The notes below the pieces were generated by a model. That model was given only the letters and a program-made list of their open reading frames with translations. It had not been told where the DNA came from and made no database searches. This document shows positions 4,992-25,712 of a stretch of 64,000 nt of DNA, one piece after another (within the stretch, counting starts at the first letter, position 1; every line of letters begins with the position of its first letter). The stretch lies in NCBI GenBank assembly GCA_049297675.1, contig JBAQUS010000010.1, positions 6,781 to 70,780 of the forward strand. Direction: 5' to 3'. A program made the translations under genes and the position numbers. The stretch is from Minisyncoccia bacterium. Lineage in GTDB: Bacteria; Patescibacteriota; Minisyncoccia; Phycocordibacterales; DATDWN01.

Positions 4992-5999
4992 ATGAGAATT
5001 CTAATTACAACAGGTATATATCCACCAAAGGTAGGTGGTCCATCACAGTATGCCAAAAACTTATTTGAAGTCTGGCAAAAGGCGGGTCATGAAGTTTTAG
5101 TTCGAACTTACACTATTGAGAATAGTATACCTACTGGAATAAGACACATTTGGTTTTTTTTGAAAATTATTCCTGCAGTGTTAAAATCGGATTTTGTCCT
5201 AAGCCTTGATACTTATAGTGTTGGGTTTCCCTCTGTCTTTGCCTCAAAAATTTTTGGGAAAAAAGTAATGATTCGTACAGGAGGAGATTTTCTCTGGGAG
5301 AGCTATGTAGAAAGAACAAGAGAAAGAGTATTGTTTAGAAATTTCTACGAAGATAAAGCTGTCAAACTGAATCTTAAAGAAAAAGTTATTTTTTCTATCA
5401 CCAAGTGGACTTTGAAAAATGCTAATAAACTCATTTTTTCGACAAATTGGCAGAGGGACATTTTCGTTAAAGCTTACCAGTTGGATATAGAAAAAACATC
5501 TATTATAGAAAATTATTATGGCCAGAAAGAATCCAGTTTGGGTCCAAATTCTAAAGATTTTATAGCTTCGACTAGAAATTTGTATTGGAAAAATCTCGAT
5601 GTATTGAAAAAGATCTTCGTGAGAATTGTTCGCAAGAACTCGCAGGTAAAGCTTTACACTTTGAATACCGATTATGATTCATTTATGGAAAGGATGAGGG
5701 GTAGTTTTGCTGTTGTTCTTGTCTCACTTGGGGACATAAGTCCAAACATGATTCTCGATGCCATAAGACTAAATAAGCCTTTTATTTGCACAAAAGAAGT
5801 TGGGATTTTTGATAGAATAAAAGATGCCGGTATTTTTGTGGATCCACTGAATGAAAATGAAATTGAGGAGGCTGTTTTAAAACTACTCAATCCTGAGGAA
5901 TATTCAAAAGCTAAAGAGAAGGTCAAAAATTTTAATTTTACACATACATGGGAAGAGATTTGTAATGAATTCATAACAATTTATAATTCAATAGAATAA
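4992..5999 (+). CDS. Glycosyltransferase (GT-B, GT4-like N-terminal domain)
   Basis: The N-terminus MRILITTGIYPPKVGGPSQYAKNL is the typical GT4 N-terminal motif. The C-terminal half is only weakly GT1-like. Confidence 0.55.
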   Translation: MRILITTGIYPPKVGGPSQYAKNLFEVWQKAGHEVLVRTYTIENSIPTGIRHIWFFLKIIPAVLKSDFVLSLDTYSVGFPSVFASKIFGKKVMIRTGGDFLWESYVERTRERVLFRNFYEDKAVKLNLKEKVIFSITKWTLKNANKLIFSTNWQRDIFVKAYQLDIEKTSIIENYYGQKESSLGPNSKDFIASTRNLYWKNLDVLKKIFVRIVRKNSQVKLYTLNTDYDSFMERMRGSFAVVLVSLGDISPNMILDAIRLNKPFICTKEVGIFDRIKDAGIFVDPLNENEIEEAVLKLLNPEEYSKAKEKVKNFNFTHTWEEICNEFITIYNSIE

Positions 6000-7164: not shown

Positions 7165-7590
7165 ATGCATAAAAAAATATTTACTCTAGTTTTGGATGTT
7201 TTGGAGGAACACAAAATACTTAGATACATTATCTCTGGCGGTATGAGTGCTACGGTAAACATTTCTCTTTTCTCTCTATTTTTTTATATCTTTGATATTT
7301 ATTACATAATCTCAAACATTATGGCTTTTTCGGTAGCTTTTTTTGTCAGTTTGTTTTTACAAAAATTTTGGACATTTAGAGATCATTCAACAGAAAATAT
7401 GCACATTCAAGGGATGTATTATCTTCTCAACTCTCTTTTAGGTTTGGCAATAAACACCACAGTCCTTTATGTTTGTGTTGATTATTTGAAATTTATACCG
7501 ATTGTAGGAGTAATCATAGCTGGAATATGTACTGCTCTAGTAACATTTCAGATTTCTAGTAGATATGTGTTTAATAATAGCTTTAAATGA
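7165..7590 (+). CDS. GtrA-family small membrane protein (putative polyprenol-phosphate-sugar flippase)
   Basis: A 141-aa protein with four predicted TM segments. The N-terminal LRYIISGGMSATVNISLFSLF matches the GtrA-family pattern. Confidence 0.6.
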   Translation: MHKKIFTLVLDVLEEHKILRYIISGGMSATVNISLFSLFFYIFDIYYIISNIMAFSVAFFVSLFLQKFWTFRDHSTENMHIQGMYYLLNSLLGLAINTTVLYVCVDYLKFIPIVGVIIAGICTALVTFQISSRYVFNNSFK

Positions 7591-19875: not shown

Positions 19876-20823
19876 ATGAAAATTTCTGTTGTTACACCCA
19901 TATACAATGAAGCCAAAAATATACCCATTTTACTTAAAGAGTTGAAGGATGTTCTAGTTAATATTAGTGATGATTATGAGATTATTACTATTGATGATGG
20001 TTCAAGGGATAATTCATTTGATGTATTATCAAATATTGCACAAAGTGATATTCACATTAAGGTAATAAATTTCAGAGTAAATAATGGTCAAACTGCAGCA
20101 ATATCTGCTGGAATTGAGCACGCAACTGGTGATCTAATTATCCCAATAGATAGTGATTTGGAAAATGATCCAAAGGATATTCCAAAATTGTTGTTAAAAA
20201 TAAATGAAGGTTTTGATGTTGTTTCTGGTTGGCGAAAAAATAGATGGAAGGACAAACTTTTGACAAGAAAATTACCATCAATGTGTGCTAATTGGATTAT
20301 ATCAAAGATTACGAGATTGAAGCTTCATGATTATGGTTGTACTTTGAAAGTTTACAAGAGGGAAGTAATAGAATATACAAATCTCTATGGTGAGATGCAC
20401 AGATTTATCCCAGCCTATGCATACTGGAGAGGGGCAAAAGTTACTGAGGTTATCATCAATCATAGATCCAGAATTCATGGTGAAAGTAATTATGGATTCA
20501 ATAGACTTTTCAAAGTTTTGCTGGACTTGATTGTAATAAAATTTCTAGAAAAATATATGAACAAGCCGATACATTTTTTCGGAGGACTCGGTTTTATATT
20601 ATTTGGTTTCGGTATATTTTTTGGCCTAACTTCTATAATTCTAAAAATTATCCAACTGAGAGATTTTGTCTCGACACCACTCCCTGTATTTTCCGCCTTC
20701 CTTTTAGTTGTAGGTATTCAACTTATTGTCATGGGAATTATTGCTGAAATACTGATGAGGACATATTACGAATCTCAAGGTAAGAAGTCATATATTATTA
20801 AGGATAAGATAAATTTGAAATAA
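19876..20823 (+). CDS. GtrB-like GT2 polyprenol-phosphate sugar synthase with C-terminal TM helices
   Basis: GT2 motifs ISVVTPIYNE, IDDGSRD and DSDLENDP are present. Two C-terminal hydrophobic helices follow, as in GtrB/ArnC. Confidence 0.75.
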   Translation: MKISVVTPIYNEAKNIPILLKELKDVLVNISDDYEIITIDDGSRDNSFDVLSNIAQSDIHIKVINFRVNNGQTAAISAGIEHATGDLIIPIDSDLENDPKDIPKLLLKINEGFDVVSGWRKNRWKDKLLTRKLPSMCANWIISKITRLKLHDYGCTLKVYKREVIEYTNLYGEMHRFIPAYAYWRGAKVTEVIINHRSRIHGESNYGFNRLFKVLLDLIVIKFLEKYMNKPIHFFGGLGFILFGFGIFFGLTSIILKIIQLRDFVSTPLPVFSAFLLVVGIQLIVMGIIAEILMRTYYESQGKKSYIIKDKINLK

Positions 20824-20824
20824 A

Positions 20825-22684
20825 ATGTGTGGTATAGCAGGTTTCGTTGGTCAAGGTGATGTATCAGACCTAGAAAAGATGACAGCATCCCTATCTAACA
20901 GAGGTCCTGATGATAGCGGTTTGTTTTGTGAAGACGGGGTTGGTTTGGGACACACAAGGCTAAGTATTATAGATCTAAGTCCTACTGGGCATCAACCAAT
21001 GTTTTCCAGTGATAAAAAAGTTGGCATCGTTTTTAATGGTGAGATGTATAATTACTTAGAATTGAAGGAAGAATTACGAAGTCAGAATTACAATTTTAAA
21101 TCTACTTCGGATACTGAAGTCATAATTGCTTTGTACATAAAGTATGGTGAGAAGTGTTTCGAAAAGATGAATGGTATGTTTGCCTTAGCTATTTATGATT
21201 TTGAGAAAGGGAAATTGATTCTCGCTCGAGACAGGCTAGGCAAAAAGCCTCTCTATTGGGCAATATTTGATAACACTTTAATTTTCGGTTCGGAACTCAA
21301 GTCTCTTCTTAAACACCCTTCATTTGTTAAAGAGATGGATCCAGAATCCCTGGAGTTATATCTTCAGCTGGATTATGTTCCCACACCGAAAACAATTTAC
21401 AAAAATGTTTTTAAGCTCGAACCAGCAAGTTTTCTTAAATTTCAAAACGGACAATATGAAGTAAAAAAGTTTTGGGAGTTGGGGGCAAAAGAAGAAGAAA
21501 AAATCTCACTAAGTGATGCCATGAAAAAACTTCATAGAGAGTTACAAGTTGCTGTAAAATCAAGAATGATCTCTGATGTTCCACTCGGTGTCTTTCTAAG
21601 CGGTGGCCTGGATAGTTCTACTGTAGCTTATTATGCTAAGAATGCTTATAAAAACGATATTCACACATTCTCAATTGGATTTAAGGAAAAAAGTTTTGAT
21701 GAGTCAAAATACGCTATTAAAGTGGCAAAATATCTTGGTACTACTCACCATCACAAAATTGTCTCGGCCAGGGACTGTTTTGAGACACTGGACGAAATAG
21801 TTGAAATTTTTGATGAACCAGTAGCCGATGCCTCTGTCATCCCAACATATCTTTTATCAAAATTTGCCAAAGAAAGCGTAACTGTAGCTATAGGTGGAGA
21901 CGGTGGGGATGAGTTGTTTGCAGGTTATCCAACTTTTCAAGCAGATAAATACCACAAAACTTATTTAAATCTACCTTCTGTGGTTAAGAAGCTAATTTCC
22001 GTAGTAATAAGTTTAATTCCGGCAACAGACAATAATTTTGGGTTGAAATTTAAACTCCAAAAATTTATTGAGGGTATTGATAAAGATAGGTTTATGAGTC
22101 ATCAAAACTGGTTAGGGACATTTTCCAGGTCTGACTTAGAAAGTTTGCTTAGGTCAAAGACTGGGAAAAATTTGGTAAAAGATTACTTGGGAAATGTATT
22201 AAGTGAGACAAAAATAAAAGATGAGGATAATAAATTACTTTACTCATACATGAGAACTTACATGATGGATGAAGTTTTGGTAAAGGTTGATAGAGCTAGT
22301 ATGTTTGCATCTCTTGAAACCAGATCACCCTTTCTCGATTATAGATTGGTAGAATTTGTATTTAGTCTACCATACTCCTTTAAACTGTATGGTTTTAAGA
22401 CAAAATTTATTCTAAAAATGCTTATGTCAACAAAATTGCCAAGATCGATTGTTTGGAGAAAAAAGAAAGGATTTGGAATACCGCTTACAAAGTGGCTAAA
22501 AGGGGACCTAAAAGAGTTTTGTCTCAGTTTGCTTTCCAAAGAAAATATTTTAAAGCAAGGTATATTTGATTATGAATTTATAGAAAAAACCTTAAATGAA
22601 CACTTTTCAAACAAACAAGACAATCGTAAAAAAATATGGAATTTGATGGTTTTTCAGATGTGGTATAGGAGGTATATGAAATAG
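20825..22684 (+). CDS. asnB: Asparagine synthetase, glutamine-hydrolysing (class II amidotransferase)
   Basis: The N-terminal MCGIAGFVG places the catalytic Cys at position 2. The PP-loop SGGLDSS marks the synthetase domain. Confidence 0.9.
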   Translation: MCGIAGFVGQGDVSDLEKMTASLSNRGPDDSGLFCEDGVGLGHTRLSIIDLSPTGHQPMFSSDKKVGIVFNGEMYNYLELKEELRSQNYNFKSTSDTEVIIALYIKYGEKCFEKMNGMFALAIYDFEKGKLILARDRLGKKPLYWAIFDNTLIFGSELKSLLKHPSFVKEMDPESLELYLQLDYVPTPKTIYKNVFKLEPASFLKFQNGQYEVKKFWELGAKEEEKISLSDAMKKLHRELQVAVKSRMISDVPLGVFLSGGLDSSTVAYYAKNAYKNDIHTFSIGFKEKSFDESKYAIKVAKYLGTTHHHKIVSARDCFETLDEIVEIFDEPVADASVIPTYLLSKFAKESVTVAIGGDGGDELFAGYPTFQADKYHKTYLNLPSVVKKLISVVISLIPATDNNFGLKFKLQKFIEGIDKDRFMSHQNWLGTFSRSDLESLLRSKTGKNLVKDYLGNVLSETKIKDEDNKLLYSYMRTYMMDEVLVKVDRASMFASLETRSPFLDYRLVEFVFSLPYSFKLYGFKTKFILKMLMSTKLPRSIVWRKKKGFGIPLTKWLKGDLKEFCLSLLSKENILKQGIFDYEFIEKTLNEHFSNKQDNRKKIWNLMVFQMWYRRYMK

Positions 22685-22802
22685 TTTTATTGTTTATCCA
22701 CAACTAACCATAATAAATCAATTTACACAATTTTAGTGATAATATATAATTGAAAGTAGAAAATATCACCTTTCCGTTATATATTATAAATAATACAATT
22801 TT

Positions 22803-23390
22803 ATGTCTACCGACAACCTTATTGCTAAGTTATATGAATCCACGAAAACAATTCTAACCATAAAGGACATAGCTTTAATTTGGGGGGAAACTAACACCGT
22901 CAGTCTTATCTCAAAGATCAAATACTATGCTAAACAAGGGTCGCTCAACCGCCTGACTCGTGGTGTGTTTGCAAAAAATAATGGGTATGATGTTAAAGAA
23001 TTAGCGACTAGCATCTATACCCCATCATATATAAGTTTTGAAACAGTCCTAAGAGAAGCCGGGATTATTTTTCAGCATCAGACTGCTATCTTTGTAGCCG
23101 GTCCATATCCAACTACAAAAAAGATTGGTGATAAAACAATTACATTTAGAAAATTAAAAGACAGTATTCTCTACAGTGCAGTTGGTGTGAAAAATGAAAA
23201 AAATTACAGCATTGCTACACCGGAGCGAGCATTTCTAGATACAATTTATTTATCTCCTAAATTATATTTTGACAATCTCCAATCCATTAACTGGGAGACA
23301 TGTTTTGAAATCGTGAAAATTTACGATAATAAACAACTAATAAAACGCCTAAAAAAATATCAGACTAACTACCAAAAACATGCTCAATAA
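22803..23390 (+). CDS. AbiEi-family antitoxin (type IV TA system)
   Basis: RLTRGVFAKN and PSYISFETVLREAGII match the AbiEi_4 pattern (rGvY ... SYiSlesAL). It overlaps the downstream toxin gene by 11 nt. Confidence 0.65.
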   Translation: MSTDNLIAKLYESTKTILTIKDIALIWGETNTVSLISKIKYYAKQGSLNRLTRGVFAKNNGYDVKELATSIYTPSYISFETVLREAGIIFQHQTAIFVAGPYPTTKKIGDKTITFRKLKDSILYSAVGVKNEKNYSIATPERAFLDTIYLSPKLYFDNLQSINWETCFEIVKIYDNKQLIKRLKKYQTNYQKHAQ

Positions 23391-24093
23391 AGAAAAACAC
23401 CAGCTTATCATGGGACAGATTCTCCGAGACATTTACTCGGATACTTCCATTTCTTCCCTTATCGGATTCAAGGGCGGTACCTGTGCCTACTTTTTCTATG
23501 GACTGACTCGTTTCTCTGTTGATTTAGACTTTGATCTCTTCTCTACCGATGAAGCCACACAAAAATTGGTGTACGAAAGAATCCAGAGGCTATTAGGAAA
23601 ATACGGAGAGGTTAAAGATAACTATATAAAACGTAACACCATCTTCTTCCTGATATCCTATGGTGATGCGGACCACAATATCAAAGTTGAAGTGAATGTC
23701 AGAATCCTTGTGCCGGATATTAGAAAACATTATGAAGTGATGAAATATCTTGGAATTTCCATGTTGGTTGGAAAAAAAGATTATATCTTTGCCAGTAAGC
23801 TTACTGCTCTGACAAGTCGAAGCGAAACAGCCATGCGTGATATTTATGACATCTGGTTTTTTGGCATCAATCATTGGGACATCAATGCCGAGGTGATCAA
23901 AGCTCGAACTGGCAAGACTATTAAAGAATATATAGCTGATTGTATTCCTGTTGTTGAAGTGGTTAAAGATAATGAAATCTTGAGAGGTCTGGCAGAGTTA
24001 TTGACTGATGAAAAAGAAAAGATGTGGGTTAAAACACATCTGCGAAAGGAGGTTATCTTCCTGCTTAAGAACTATCAGTCAATATTAAAATAA
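23380..24093 (+). CDS. AbiEii/AbiGii-family nucleotidyltransferase toxin (DUF1814)
   Basis: FKGGTCAYFFYGLTRFSVDLDFDL carries the GG[ST]...D.D nucleotidyltransferase motif of AbiEii toxins. Confidence 0.7.
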   Translation: MLNKEKHQLIMGQILRDIYSDTSISSLIGFKGGTCAYFFYGLTRFSVDLDFDLFSTDEATQKLVYERIQRLLGKYGEVKDNYIKRNTIFFLISYGDADHNIKVEVNVRILVPDIRKHYEVMKYLGISMLVGKKDYIFASKLTALTSRSETAMRDIYDIWFFGINHWDINAEVIKARTGKTIKEYIADCIPVVEVVKDNEILRGLAELLTDEKEKMWVKTHLRKEVIFLLKNYQSILK

Positions 24094-24110
24094 AATTTAT
24101 GATTCACAAA

Positions 24111-24198
24111 ATGACCACTTTTCAAGCCGAGAAGATAATCGTAAAAAAATCTGGAATCTAGTGGTTTTTCAGATGTGGTATGATAGATATATGAAATA
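24111..24198 (+). pseudogene. Diverged duplicate of the asnB 3' end (remnant fragment)
   Basis: About 88 nt with roughly 85% identity to 22597-22684. It would encode ...NRKKIWNLVVFQMWYDRYMK*, against the asnB C-terminus ...NRKKIWNLMVFQMWYRRYMK*. Confidence 0.7.
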
Positions 24199-24230
24199 AC
24201 TTTTATTATTAATAATAAATTTAAACCTTA

Positions 24231-25712
24231 ATGAAAAAAATAACTAATGTATTTATGTCGATCATTTTGTCTGTTTTGGTGGCAATTCCATTCAATGTTT
24301 TTGCCTTTACTTCTGAGTGTACTGGTGGAACTATTACTAATGTCGGAGCAAATACAGTTCACACTTTTACATCGAGCGGAACTTTTGAATGTTCTAGTGC
24401 AGGAACAGGAAATGTAGATTATTTGGTTGTTGCAGGCGGTGGTGGAGGTGGTGGAGCAAACAGTGCTGGTGGTGGCGGTGCTGGTGGTGTGAGGATGGGT
24501 ACTTCACTCTCATTCTCGGGCAGTTCATCTGTAACAGTTGGTTCTGGAGGTACAGGTGGGGCTGACACTGGGGTAACTGGATCGAATGGTTCTGACTCGG
24601 TGTGGAATAGTATAATCTCAATTGGTGGCAGTGGAGGTGGTGGCAATACTGCCCCCTCAAACGCTGGGACTAATGGTGGTTCAGGCGGTGGAAATGCTGG
24701 ATTTGGTACTGGACTTGCTGGATCGGGAATAGTTGGTCAAGGTAATGATGGGGGTGTTGGTGCAGATAATCCTTTTCCTTCTGGTGGGGGTGGTGGAGCA
24801 GGTTCAACTGGACAAGCTGGGACGGGTTTTCAATCAGGGTCTGGAGGAGCTGGCATAGTTAGTTCAATTTCTGGTTCTGCTATTTACTATGGAGGCGGAG
24901 GTGGTGGAGGCTCTAGCTCACAAGGATCATTATATGGACTCGGTGGTATAGGTGGTGGTGGAAATGGAGGAGAATTGGGGAATCCAACGTTAGGTGTTGC
25001 CAATACTGGAGGGGGAGGTGGTGGTTCGGGTAGTGCTAACACTGTTGGAGCGTCAGGCGGTTCGGGTATTGTAATACTGAGTTATGTAACCCCGGTCTAT
25101 CTTCCACCAATAACTGGAACTGGAATAAATAATAGATTAGCAAAATTTTCATCAGCCACCACAATAACTAACTCCTTACTTTCCGATGATGGACTAAACA
25201 TATCTCTTACCTCTGGTAACTTATTTATCTCGAACGGTTCTTTATTTTCACAATTTATTAGTTTATTAGCTGACGGTTTGGGTTTAGATACTGATACTCC
25301 CAGACTTCTCTCTATTGGCTCTACAACCGCAACTTCAATAAATATTGGTAGGGCAAATGTTACAACTACAATATTTGGTACAACAAAAATATCAAATATT
25401 GGTACTGTCTCAAATTGTGTTTCAACAATCACTCCTGCTGTATGTGGTTCTGCTCCATCTGGAAGTGTAGCAATGTCAACTGGAGGTAGTACTTTAATAG
25501 TGAATACAACAGCAGTGACATCAGATAGTCAGATATTTGTAATAGAAGATGCATCACTTGGTGCAAGACTAGGTATTACTTGTAGTGGTGCAGGGGCAAA
25601 TAGAAGTTTTAGTATTAGTGCTAGAACGGCTAATACTAGTTACACTATTAAATCTAGTGGTAATATAACTGGTGCTAACAAAGCTTGTTTGAGTTATTTT
25701 ATAGTGAACTAA
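24231..25712 (+). CDS. Secreted glycine-rich domain protein (Gly_rich-like) with conserved C-terminal Ser/Thr-rich domain; paralog A
   Basis: A signal peptide (MKKITNVFMSIILSVLVAIPFNVFA) is followed by VDYLVVAGGGGGGG and long GGxGG tracts, then GSGIVILSY. The C-terminal roughly 190 aa are about 75-80% identical to the paralog at 52750-54213. Both end in CLSYFIVN. Confidence 0.75.
   Translation: MKKITNVFMSIILSVLVAIPFNVFAFTSECTGGTITNVGANTVHTFTSSGTFECSSAGTGNVDYLVVAGGGGGGGANSAGGGGAGGVRMGTSLSFSGSSSVTVGSGGTGGADTGVTGSNGSDSVWNSIISIGGSGGGGNTAPSNAGTNGGSGGGNAGFGTGLAGSGIVGQGNDGGVGADNPFPSGGGGGAGSTGQAGTGFQSGSGGAGIVSSISGSAIYYGGGGGGGSSSQGSLYGLGGIGGGGNGGELGNPTLGVANTGGGGGGSGSANTVGASGGSGIVILSYVTPVYLPPITGTGINNRLAKFSSATTITNSLLSDDGLNISLTSGNLFISNGSLFSQFISLLADGLGLDTDTPRLLSIGSTTATSINIGRANVTTTIFGTTKISNIGTVSNCVSTITPAVCGSAPSGSVAMSTGGSTLIVNTTAVTSDSQIFVIEDASLGARLGITCSGAGANRSFSISARTANTSYTIKSSGNITGANKACLSYFIVN

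Follow-up and report, generated by a model that had tools for sequence, protein, structure and literature searches.

An AbiE toxin-antitoxin cassette between two allelic 3′ ends of an asnB gene in a Minisyncoccia bacterium

Introduction

How toxin-antitoxin (TA) and other small defence cassettes move when they carry no mobility genes is poorly understood, and the bacteria of the candidate phyla radiation (CPR) have tiny genomes whose exchange of genes is little known. The subject of this article is a stretch of 64,000 nucleotides, referred to as the window, from a Minisyncoccia bacterium (GenBank assembly GCA_049297675.1, contig JBAQUS010000010.1), in which two genes of the AbiE system lie 3′ of an intact asnB-like gene and are followed by an orphan copy of the 3′ end of that same gene, i.e., a stub. 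A first reading of the letters, called here the earlier note, had described the two gene ends as diverged direct repeats around a TA pair and had offered two origins for them, namely the replacement of most of a second, tandem asnB by the TA genes, or a duplication on insertion followed by drift. The anatomy of the locus, the identity of the AbiE genes, the signature of selection that the stub bears, the mosaic ancestry of the intact asnB at its tail and the recurrence of the arrangement at many other loci are established directly in what follows, and lead to the question of the route by which such a structure may have formed.

Genes and repeats at the locus

The intact gene (20825–22684, plus strand) encodes an AsnB-like glutamine amidotransferase/asparagine synthase of 619 aa, with Pfam matches to Asn_synthase (4e-99), GATase_6 and GATase_7, and it is set in a glycan-biosynthesis gene cluster. 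From this context only, the role of a sugar amidotransferase seems likelier for the enzyme than that of a housekeeping asparagine synthase. No second asnB homologue is present elsewhere in the 64-kb window.

Downstream of it lie abiEi (22803–23390, plus strand), encoding a predicted antitoxin and transcriptional regulator of 195 aa that is matched over its full length by the PADLOC AbiEi model (PDLC02255, 1.7e-56), and abiEii (23380–24093, plus strand), encoding a predicted nucleotidyltransferase toxin of 237 aa (PF08843, 6.6e-17, 62.7 bits for a cut-off of 22.5; PADLOC AbiEii, 1.1e-66). The antitoxin gene comes first, and the two overlap by 11 nt. The AbiEii motifs FKGGT...FSVDLDFD, of the GG...DxD type, and RDIYD align with the solved chain 4o8s; a sequence search returned no solved relative of AbiEi. 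The naming of both genes as AbiE, already made in the earlier note, is upheld by PADLOC and, for the toxin, by PF08843, while the PF13338-type match expected for the antitoxin was not reproduced: no Pfam family exceeded its threshold, and the best, AbiEi_3, reached E = 0.12 (12.4 bits vs a cut-off of 26). The first set of relatives comprises 80 loci; abiEi is paired with abiEii at 78 of them, and the other two are cut by the end of the contig. On sequence grounds, the genes between the repeats are identified as a true AbiEi/AbiEii pair.

The first copy of the repeat (22594–22697, plus strand) covers the final 29 codons of the intact asnB together with the stop codon and some 13 nt that follow it, and the second (24109–24213, plus strand) is the orphan asnB 3′ stub, whose coding-like part occupies 24110–24199. 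They align over 105 columns with 83% identity, in the same reading frame and with a lone 1-nt gap just 3′ of the stop codon, so that the repeat that had been noticed after the AbiEii gene is borne out and is slightly longer than proposed. By blastn inside the window the pair has E = 4e-25, and its Smith-Waterman score of 117 compares with a mean of 22.5 and a maximum of 38 in a cross-locus null of 400 flank comparisons. The in-frame reading of copy 2, NDHFSSREDNRKKIWNLVVFQMWYDRYMK followed by a stop, shares 23 of 29 residues with the C-terminus of asnB, NEHFSNKQDNRKKIWNLMVFQMWYRRYMK followed by a stop, and the stop codon is preserved, as TAA in copy 2 vs TAG in copy 1; the assignment of copy 2 as an asnB 3′ end holds as well. 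The stub is untranslatable now, with an in-frame stop 8 codons upstream and no in-frame start codon, and 24110–24199 should be annotated as a gene fragment, not as a small open reading frame (ORF).

The 2 kb from 22400 to 24400 are base-identical in contigs of three separate sequencing runs and in the NCBI metagenome-assembled genome (MAG) GCA_049298995.1 (Minisyncoccia), and for this reason the structure is taken as real and not as an assembly chimera. One contig with the same asnB (L004, from SRR28011841, 2664 nt) stops 64 nt inside abiEi; low coverage or strain heterogeneity at the cassette border is possible there.

The stub as part of a once working asnB

Over the 29 codons, the two copies differ at 14 nucleotides, of which about 5.7 are synonymous, and the proportions of nonsynonymous (pN) and synonymous (pS) differences are 0.106 and 0.571, giving a pN/pS of 0.19. 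The six residue changes in the stub are, as read from the alignment, either conservative or at positions that vary among homologues, and the residues conserved in the family are all retained. In 20,000 simulations of drift, each with 14 random substitutions placed on copy 1 and scored against a profile of 119 homologues, a stop codon was gained in 66% of the runs and only 0.27% had six or fewer residue changes. The profile score of copy 2 is 78.4, the simulated median 28.7, and none of the 20,000 neutral runs reached the value of copy 2. It follows from the simulations and from pN/pS that copy 2 is not a drifted duplicate: the stub evolved within a working asnB, under purifying selection, until recently.

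This result bears first on the proposal of a long target-site duplication made at insertion, with neutral drift of the unused copy thereafter. Such an event would give an insert flanked by direct repeats of host sequence, as found here, and would have to produce by drift a stub that drift did not once reproduce in the simulations. The second of the two origins offered in the earlier note is thereby refuted for the window, and the other loci described below speak in the same sense. A transposon or insertion sequence was also considered and rejected, in view of a unit with two genes only, both AbiE, of repeats that are never identical, and of a repeat search that reported no terminal inverted repeat; we know of no transposase whose footprint matches repeats of 30–203 nt, the range found over all loci.

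The mosaic tail of asnB and the related loci

The intact gene is not uniform in its ancestry. We compared the AsnB protein of the window (P0001) with its closest relative (P0002), with P0003, and with P0006, which is otherwise distant. Over residues 100–555, identity is 0.89 for P0001/P0002, 0.82 for P0002/P0003 and 0.59 for P0001/P0006; over residues 555–590, the same three values become 0.40, 0.83 and 0.74 (Fisher p = 4.7e-4), P0006 taking the place of P0002 as the nearest match to P0001, and the nucleotide identities of asnB flip in the same way at the tail. Because P0002 and P0003 stay equally close to each other while P0001 and P0002 fall apart, the replaced tail is that of the window. 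The intact asnB is thus a mosaic, with a tail of differing ancestry (22490–22684, plus strand, about codons 555–619) that is foreign to its own P0002/P0003 clade and whose left limit is an approximate recombination breakpoint.

The closest AsnB proteins have 83, 79, 64 and 61% identity to that of the window. The related loci (L008, L009/L010, L091 and L092) have the order GT2-asnB-methyltransferase, one asnB each and no TA genes, with 12–39 nt from the asnB stop codon to the next gene. Synteny with the window is kept upstream of asnB, and the downstream genes are unrelated to those of the window; from the two together, the 3′ end of asnB marks a boundary between conserved and variable DNA in the glycan locus. 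The GT2-asnB pair itself (19876–22684 in the window, and L008, L009, L091 and L092) is a conserved block at the edge of a highly variable glycosylation cluster.

These loci are informative about the other origin first suggested, which supposes that asnB was duplicated in tandem long ago and that the second copy then lost everything except its final 90 nt to the cassette. The stub does show, in its pattern of selection, the mark of a formerly functional gene, and among 120 homologues the nearest relative of each copy is the other copy, both of which a tandem pair would explain. The intact second asnB with the same 3′ end that relatives might have kept was found in none of the four related loci, each of which has a single gene, and the tail of the intact gene in the window is itself foreign. 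The same anatomy occurs, as shown next, at many unrelated genes.

Flanking repeats at other loci

AbiEii relatives, confirmed by tblastn, are encoded in more than 550 stretches of a species-representative genome collection and more than 550 of metagenomes. At every fetched locus with enough flanking sequence, the 400 nt to the left of abiEi were aligned to the 400 nt to the right of abiEii, and a score of at least 45 was counted as a repeat. Of the genome loci, 11 of 70 had flanking repeats, as had 10 of 946 control positions shifted within the same loci (odds ratio 17, p = 1.6e-8); for independent metagenome loci, the figures are 6 of 42 and 3 of 333 (odds ratio 18, p = 9e-5). When both sets are pooled, 17 of 112 cassettes (15%) lie between imperfect direct repeats of host sequence, vs 1% of the controls, and inspection of the five strongest control matches traced three of them to repeats within large surface proteins and not to cassette borders.

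The flanking repeats are 30–203 nt long and 72–96% identical, and none is perfect. Their sources differ from locus to locus: the 3′ end of ndk (L066), the 5′ end of ftsW/rodA (L064), the 5′ end of pfkA (L167), the 3′ end of a TsaD-like gene with its terminator (L061), and intergenic or terminator sequence at others; a search with wider flanks gave the 3′ end of a tRNA-Ser as the repeat of L114. The cassettes that bear repeats span the whole range of divergence, from 58% to 88% identity to the AbiEii of the window. Most left copies end 64–234 nt before the start of abiEi, and the right copies start 0–229 nt after the stop codon of abiEii, a distance of no more than 25 nt for 8 of the 17 loci.

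At six loci the repeat falls within a clear gene, which for five of the six matches a Pfam family, and here synonymous and nonsynonymous differences were counted in reading frames fixed from clear ORFs. There are 34 synonymous and 22 nonsynonymous differences between the copies, a pN/pS of 0.18, with p = 2.7e-10 vs neutrality and p = 2.4e-5 vs one constrained and one neutral copy. At L066 all eight differences between the copies are synonymous, and in the terminator repeat of L115 an apparent compensatory pair is read from the alignment of the stem. The stubs are allelic gene ends.

In light of these loci, target-site duplication followed by drift is hardly credible as an explanation: the pooled pN/pS and the synonymous changes of L066 oppose it, and perfect repeats occur at no locus. 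The tandem duplication of asnB becomes highly improbable, since ndk, ftsW, pfkA, tRNA-Ser and the non-coding terminators would each need a tandem duplicate of their own, in genomes of about 1 Mb.

Neither the window, where the repeats enclose just the two AbiE genes, nor L114 has a recombinase or integrase gene between the repeats; an integrase might act in trans. The recurrence of the repeats suggests that the spread of the cassette relies on recombination at gene ends that it has borrowed, and that no integrase carried by the cassette is involved.

Some of the loci have features worth recording in their own right. At L114 (689–2934), abiEi, abiEii and one extra gene of 205 aa lie between tRNA-Ser(GGA) and a second copy of its 3′ end, which is 51 nt long and 92% identical. 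At L039, a 66-nt direct repeat of 98% identity (5832–5897 and 7249–7314) lies directly 3′ of the abiE pair, around two small ORFs, and may bound a further cassette. At L048 (407–2589), a longer segment is bounded by repeats and has, upstream of abiE, a minus-strand ORF that by its appearance resembles a PIN-domain (VapC-type) toxin.

Control region and edges of the cassette

A promoter for the abiE genes is predicted, from its consensus match only, at 22722–22750 (plus strand; TTTACA, a 17-nt spacer and TATAAT, 11 of 12 consensus positions), and other cassettes have TTGACT-N17-TATACAAT at the homologous position. An imperfect inverted repeat (22733–22793), with arms of 24 nt (22733–22756 and 22770–22793) that are 83% complementary, extends across this promoter and is a candidate AbiEi operator; it overlaps the predicted −10 element, and its inner arms, GAAAGTAG and CACCTTTC, are found at 22752–22774. 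The inner inverted repeat GGAAAGGTG..CACCTTTCC is kept in related cassettes. Such a layout of promoter and inverted repeat is the one that would be expected for AbiEi autoregulation.

At the junction of copy 1 and the cassette lies TTATCCACA (22694–22702, plus strand), a DnaA-box-like motif as read from the letters. Of 112 related loci, 15 (such as L011, L015, L028, L032, L040, L051, L098, L100 and L115) have the exact 8-mer TTATCCAC, followed by A or T, on the same strand, at a distance of 50–100 nt before the start codon of abiEi; it is nearly absent otherwise from the 1-kb flanks. Its usual place is about 8 nt ahead of the −35 element and directly past an upstream terminator, and at L115 it is found at both sides of the cassette, within the repeat. 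It could be a regulatory site or a clue to a defined terminus.

The right edge of the cassette is formed by the 15 nt AATTTATGATTCACA (24094–24108, plus strand), which look like the spacer, with the start codon, that leads into a third, radC-like gene behind abiEii at other loci, and AAYTTATGA is common to the right flanks of the window, L011, L012 and L024. A radC-like JAB-domain gene lies directly 3′ of abiEii at L011 (6720–7214; RadC PF04002, 1e-9), L014, L049, L051, L054, L058, L067, L098 and L100. The 15 nt are probably a remnant of this gene, and the ancestral unit may have had three genes, i.e., abiEi, abiEii and the radC-like one. In a check for microhomology at the supposed illegitimate junction, ATGACCAC at the start of the stub was found to resemble the start regions of the radC-like genes of L012, L099 and L104. 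We also attempted to define precise ends of the element from the homology of cassette DNA, which stops about 40–80 nt upstream of the abiEi start codon, at the promoter, and at the abiEii stop codon; these limits coincide with the limits of selection, and the termini are therefore not defined by them.

Spread of the cassette

AbiEii homologues of 79–88% identity occur across Kaiser-, Uhr-, Nomura-, Magasanik- and Azambacteria and other groups, in contrast to AsnB, whose identity is at most 64% after the two closest matches. The flanking genes have a GC skew of +0.1 to +0.3, which drops to around zero or below within the cassette. Judged by these comparisons, the AbiE cassette is horizontally mobile and widespread in CPR lineages. 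Its neighbours among the fetched loci are diverse (ndk, ftsW, pfkA, tRNA-Ser, translation genes), and the connection to a surface-glycan locus, which had seemed suggestive in the window, is not specific.

Two ideas about the vehicle were dropped. Carriage by phages was rejected, as the viral contigs of IMG/VR contain only two distant relatives, at 47% identity. The many AbiEii contigs of 1.3–1.5 kb were considered as a possible discrete or circular unit, and by their lengths they belong to a continuum of the sort usual for short metagenome contigs. In addition, a number of MAG records titled ‘uncultured Gammaproteobacteria’ or ‘Candidatus Saccharibacteria’ (binchicken co-assemblies; L035, L036, L047, L050 and others) carry the cassette at 60–88% identity; these titles may be placeholder taxonomy, and the lineage labels need caution.

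The structure in the window could also be the remnant of a larger integrative element with an integrase, of the kind of e14 in icd or of a cis-mobilizable element (CIME), which would have targeted the 3′ end of asnB, brought a replacement tail, and later lost all but the TA pair, leaving the repeats as attL and attR. Elements of this type are classically recognised by a replaced gene 3′ end and imperfect repeats at their flanks, TA pairs resist deletion, the repeats of L114 derive from the 3′ end of a tRNA-Ser, and the island that holds the cassette of L011 also encodes a large serine recombinase and a putative DNA methyltransferase, besides the radC-like gene. Set against these points are the repeat-bounded units of the window and L114, which have no integrase, the repeated position of the repeats next to the functional ends of the cassette, which random decay would not give, the roughly 17 different targets without a common core sequence, and the scarcity of relatives in viral contigs. 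We consider an origin of this kind distinctly unlikely.

The gene downstream of the stub

The next gene (24231–25712, plus strand) encodes a glycine-rich protein (Pfam Gly_rich_2, 9.5e-17) whose hydrophobic N-terminus points to secretion. It starts 32 nt past the stop codon of the stub, a spacing akin to that of the native junctions between asnB and the next gene in the relatives, and its glycine-rich part has a GC content of up to 0.51. The C-terminal half is non-repetitive, and its homologues, of 38–72% identity (about 50% for those of full coverage), carry a weak annotation as PF24146 K1-lyase_C. Two contexts of homologues of this half were examined; both are among glycan genes and neither has the homologue directly 3′ of asnB, and at L095 an Asn_synthase gene lies about 1.4 kb from a homologue of the glycine-rich gene, on the opposite strand.

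Possible routes of insertion

We read the structure in the window, with slightly better than even confidence, as the scar of a 3′-end displacement, made by recombination on flank homology without a recombinase encoded by the cassette. A 1.4-kb AbiE type IV cassette, consisting of promoter/operator, abiEi and abiEii, would have entered on DNA of a diverged relative in which it already lay directly 3′ of asnB. One end of the incoming DNA would have recombined by homology in a conserved part of asnB, near codon 555, so that the incoming tail completed the gene, and the other end would have been joined illegitimately, at a junction that lies 15 nt 3′ of the abiEii stop codon and 90 nt ahead of the one that ends the resident asnB tail. 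The earlier tail would thereby have been pushed downstream as a non-functional stub, giving the order intact asnB, cassette, allelic stub, and the copies would differ by their descent from two lineages and not by decay in place. Once the cassette was installed, TA addiction and the 17% divergence of the repeats would both oppose its loss via deletion from repeat to repeat.

A route driven by homology and free of a dedicated recombinase is favoured because the unit is just the cassette, the repeats adjoin its functional ends, and the targets have no common core. We infer that this route was either homology-facilitated illegitimate recombination or the single crossover of a circular molecule; likewise, the order and number of events, and whether they took place in the lineage of the window or in a donor whose locus was later imported whole, are matters of inference.

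The circular alternative, of Campbell type, supposes a circle that carried the cassette and about 100 nt of a diverged asnB tail, and a single homologous crossover in that tail, with the tail duplicated on both sides and the circle open to re-release by recombination between the repeats. It would yield an identical anatomy, with copies that likewise differ from each other as alleles do, it suits the short repeats (30–203 nt) that hug the cassette, with the right copy so often within 25 nt of the abiEii stop codon, and it would account for spread among genomes with a common target gene. Neither a circular form nor an excision junction was seen, and the first arrival of the cassette at a new target gene is left unexplained. 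Moreover, the foreign tract of asnB begins about 100 nt upstream of the repeat, which a crossover within 105 nt of homology does not predict, even if the breakpoint may be a separate event. A circle of this kind is possible, though we deem it unlikely.

Several observations weigh against 3′-end displacement as we have set it out. The first is numerical, as 85% of the cassettes have no flanking repeat. The second concerns the process, homologous recombination being inefficient at a divergence of about 17–25%. The third is the stub itself, which has 79% identity to copy 1, 62% to the tail of P0002 and 58–61 of 90 nt in common with the tails of L008 and L009, so that it does not match the resident, vertically inherited asnB lineage, for which about 80% to the P0002 tail would be expected. 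Since the stub does not resemble P0002 either, one event in the direct ancestor would not suffice, and either at least two tail replacements or a scar imported ready-made from a donor would be needed. A donor with asnB followed by abiE was not found, none of 160 fetched AbiE loci having asnB next to the cassette; nor was an empty site, with an asnB bearing the tail of copy 2 and then the glycine-rich gene, which has no close relatives, and look-ups of the exact proteins for either one returned the same strain only. Given the poor match between the stub and the P0002 tail, the break in ancestry near codon 555 may also stem from a larger exchange within the variable glycan region instead of from the arrival of the cassette. 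Finally, at some of the loci the left edge of the cassette starts at TTATCCAC, which may be a sign that this end is a defined one and that the mechanism is more specific.

A bolder extension, which we regard as distinctly doubtful, is that the AbiE cassette family is a self-propagating mobile unit of CPR bacteria without a recombinase, which uses a short piece of a neighbouring host gene as its homology handle, possibly via DNA uptake, inserts by displacing gene ends, and locks the insertion by its own addiction function; in its strongest form, AbiEi/AbiEii or the left end with TTATCCAC would promote integration. CPR bacteria are thought to rely on DNA-uptake machinery.

Significance

The presence of AbiE in CPR bacteria is already known. 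To our knowledge, the recurrent allelic stubs are apparently undescribed, since we found no description, in the open-access literature, of gene-end stubs flanking AbiE or other TA cassettes. The window and its approximately 17 parallel cases offer a concrete, testable footprint, i.e., allelic gene-end stubs beside a cassette family of many CPR lineages, and it suggests that the host's own recombination acted on flank homology that the cassette had borrowed. Should this hold, the stubs would serve as a genome-wide marker of the donors and recipients of defence genes, and would help to explain how cassettes come to lie beside housekeeping genes such as ndk, ftsW and pfkA without disrupting them.

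Comparison with known systems

With regard to the cargo, the window has the features of AbiE systems, including the operon with the antitoxin first, the 11-nt overlap, the DUF1814/PF08843 toxin with GG...DxD and RDxYD motifs, and the inverted repeat over the predicted promoter. It differs in its antitoxin, which falls below every Pfam AbiEi threshold and is recognised only by the PADLOC model. We know of no CPR copy of AbiE with a known phenotype. AbiE is described as a type IV toxin-antitoxin and abortive-infection system (Dy et al. 2014, as cited in PMC13059738), it is among the commonest defence families of groundwater bacteria, and AbiEi-AbiEii pairs occur in a patescibacterial epibiont (PMC12259885, PMC13059738).

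With regard to the architecture, the first comparison is with prophage e14 and phage 21 in icd, with the islands that target tRNA genes, and with the CIMEs of Streptococcus thermophilus, all of which replace the 3′ end of their target gene. As in the window, the gene stays intact with a tail supplied by the insert, the native tail is displaced to the far end, and the two form imperfect direct repeats. Unlike the window, these elements encode or use a site-specific integrase and have one defined att core, whereas the unit described here is 1.4 kb long, has no integrase, and lies at targets that vary by locus.

A likeness in process is seen with Rhs, contact-dependent inhibition (CDI) and type VI secretion system (T6SS) loci; the name reportedly attached to C-terminal displacement in Rhs/CDI-type loci is that of Jackson in 2009. 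The displacement of effectors or C-termini in Rhs and T6SS loci has been credited to homology-facilitated illegitimate recombination (Kirchberger 2017, PMC5361080). In these systems, a new gene end and its linked cargo anchor by homology in the resident gene, within its conserved part, the old 3′ end becomes an orphan stub, and no dedicated recombinase takes part, and the same is proposed here for the window. The difference lies in what is displaced: in Rhs, CDI and T6SS loci toxin tips, which are both functional and variable, are the ends that become displaced, and it is the gene itself that is diversified, whereas in the window the end of a housekeeping or glycan enzyme would be a mere homology handle, the cargo is an unrelated TA pair, and the cassette family uses many host genes.

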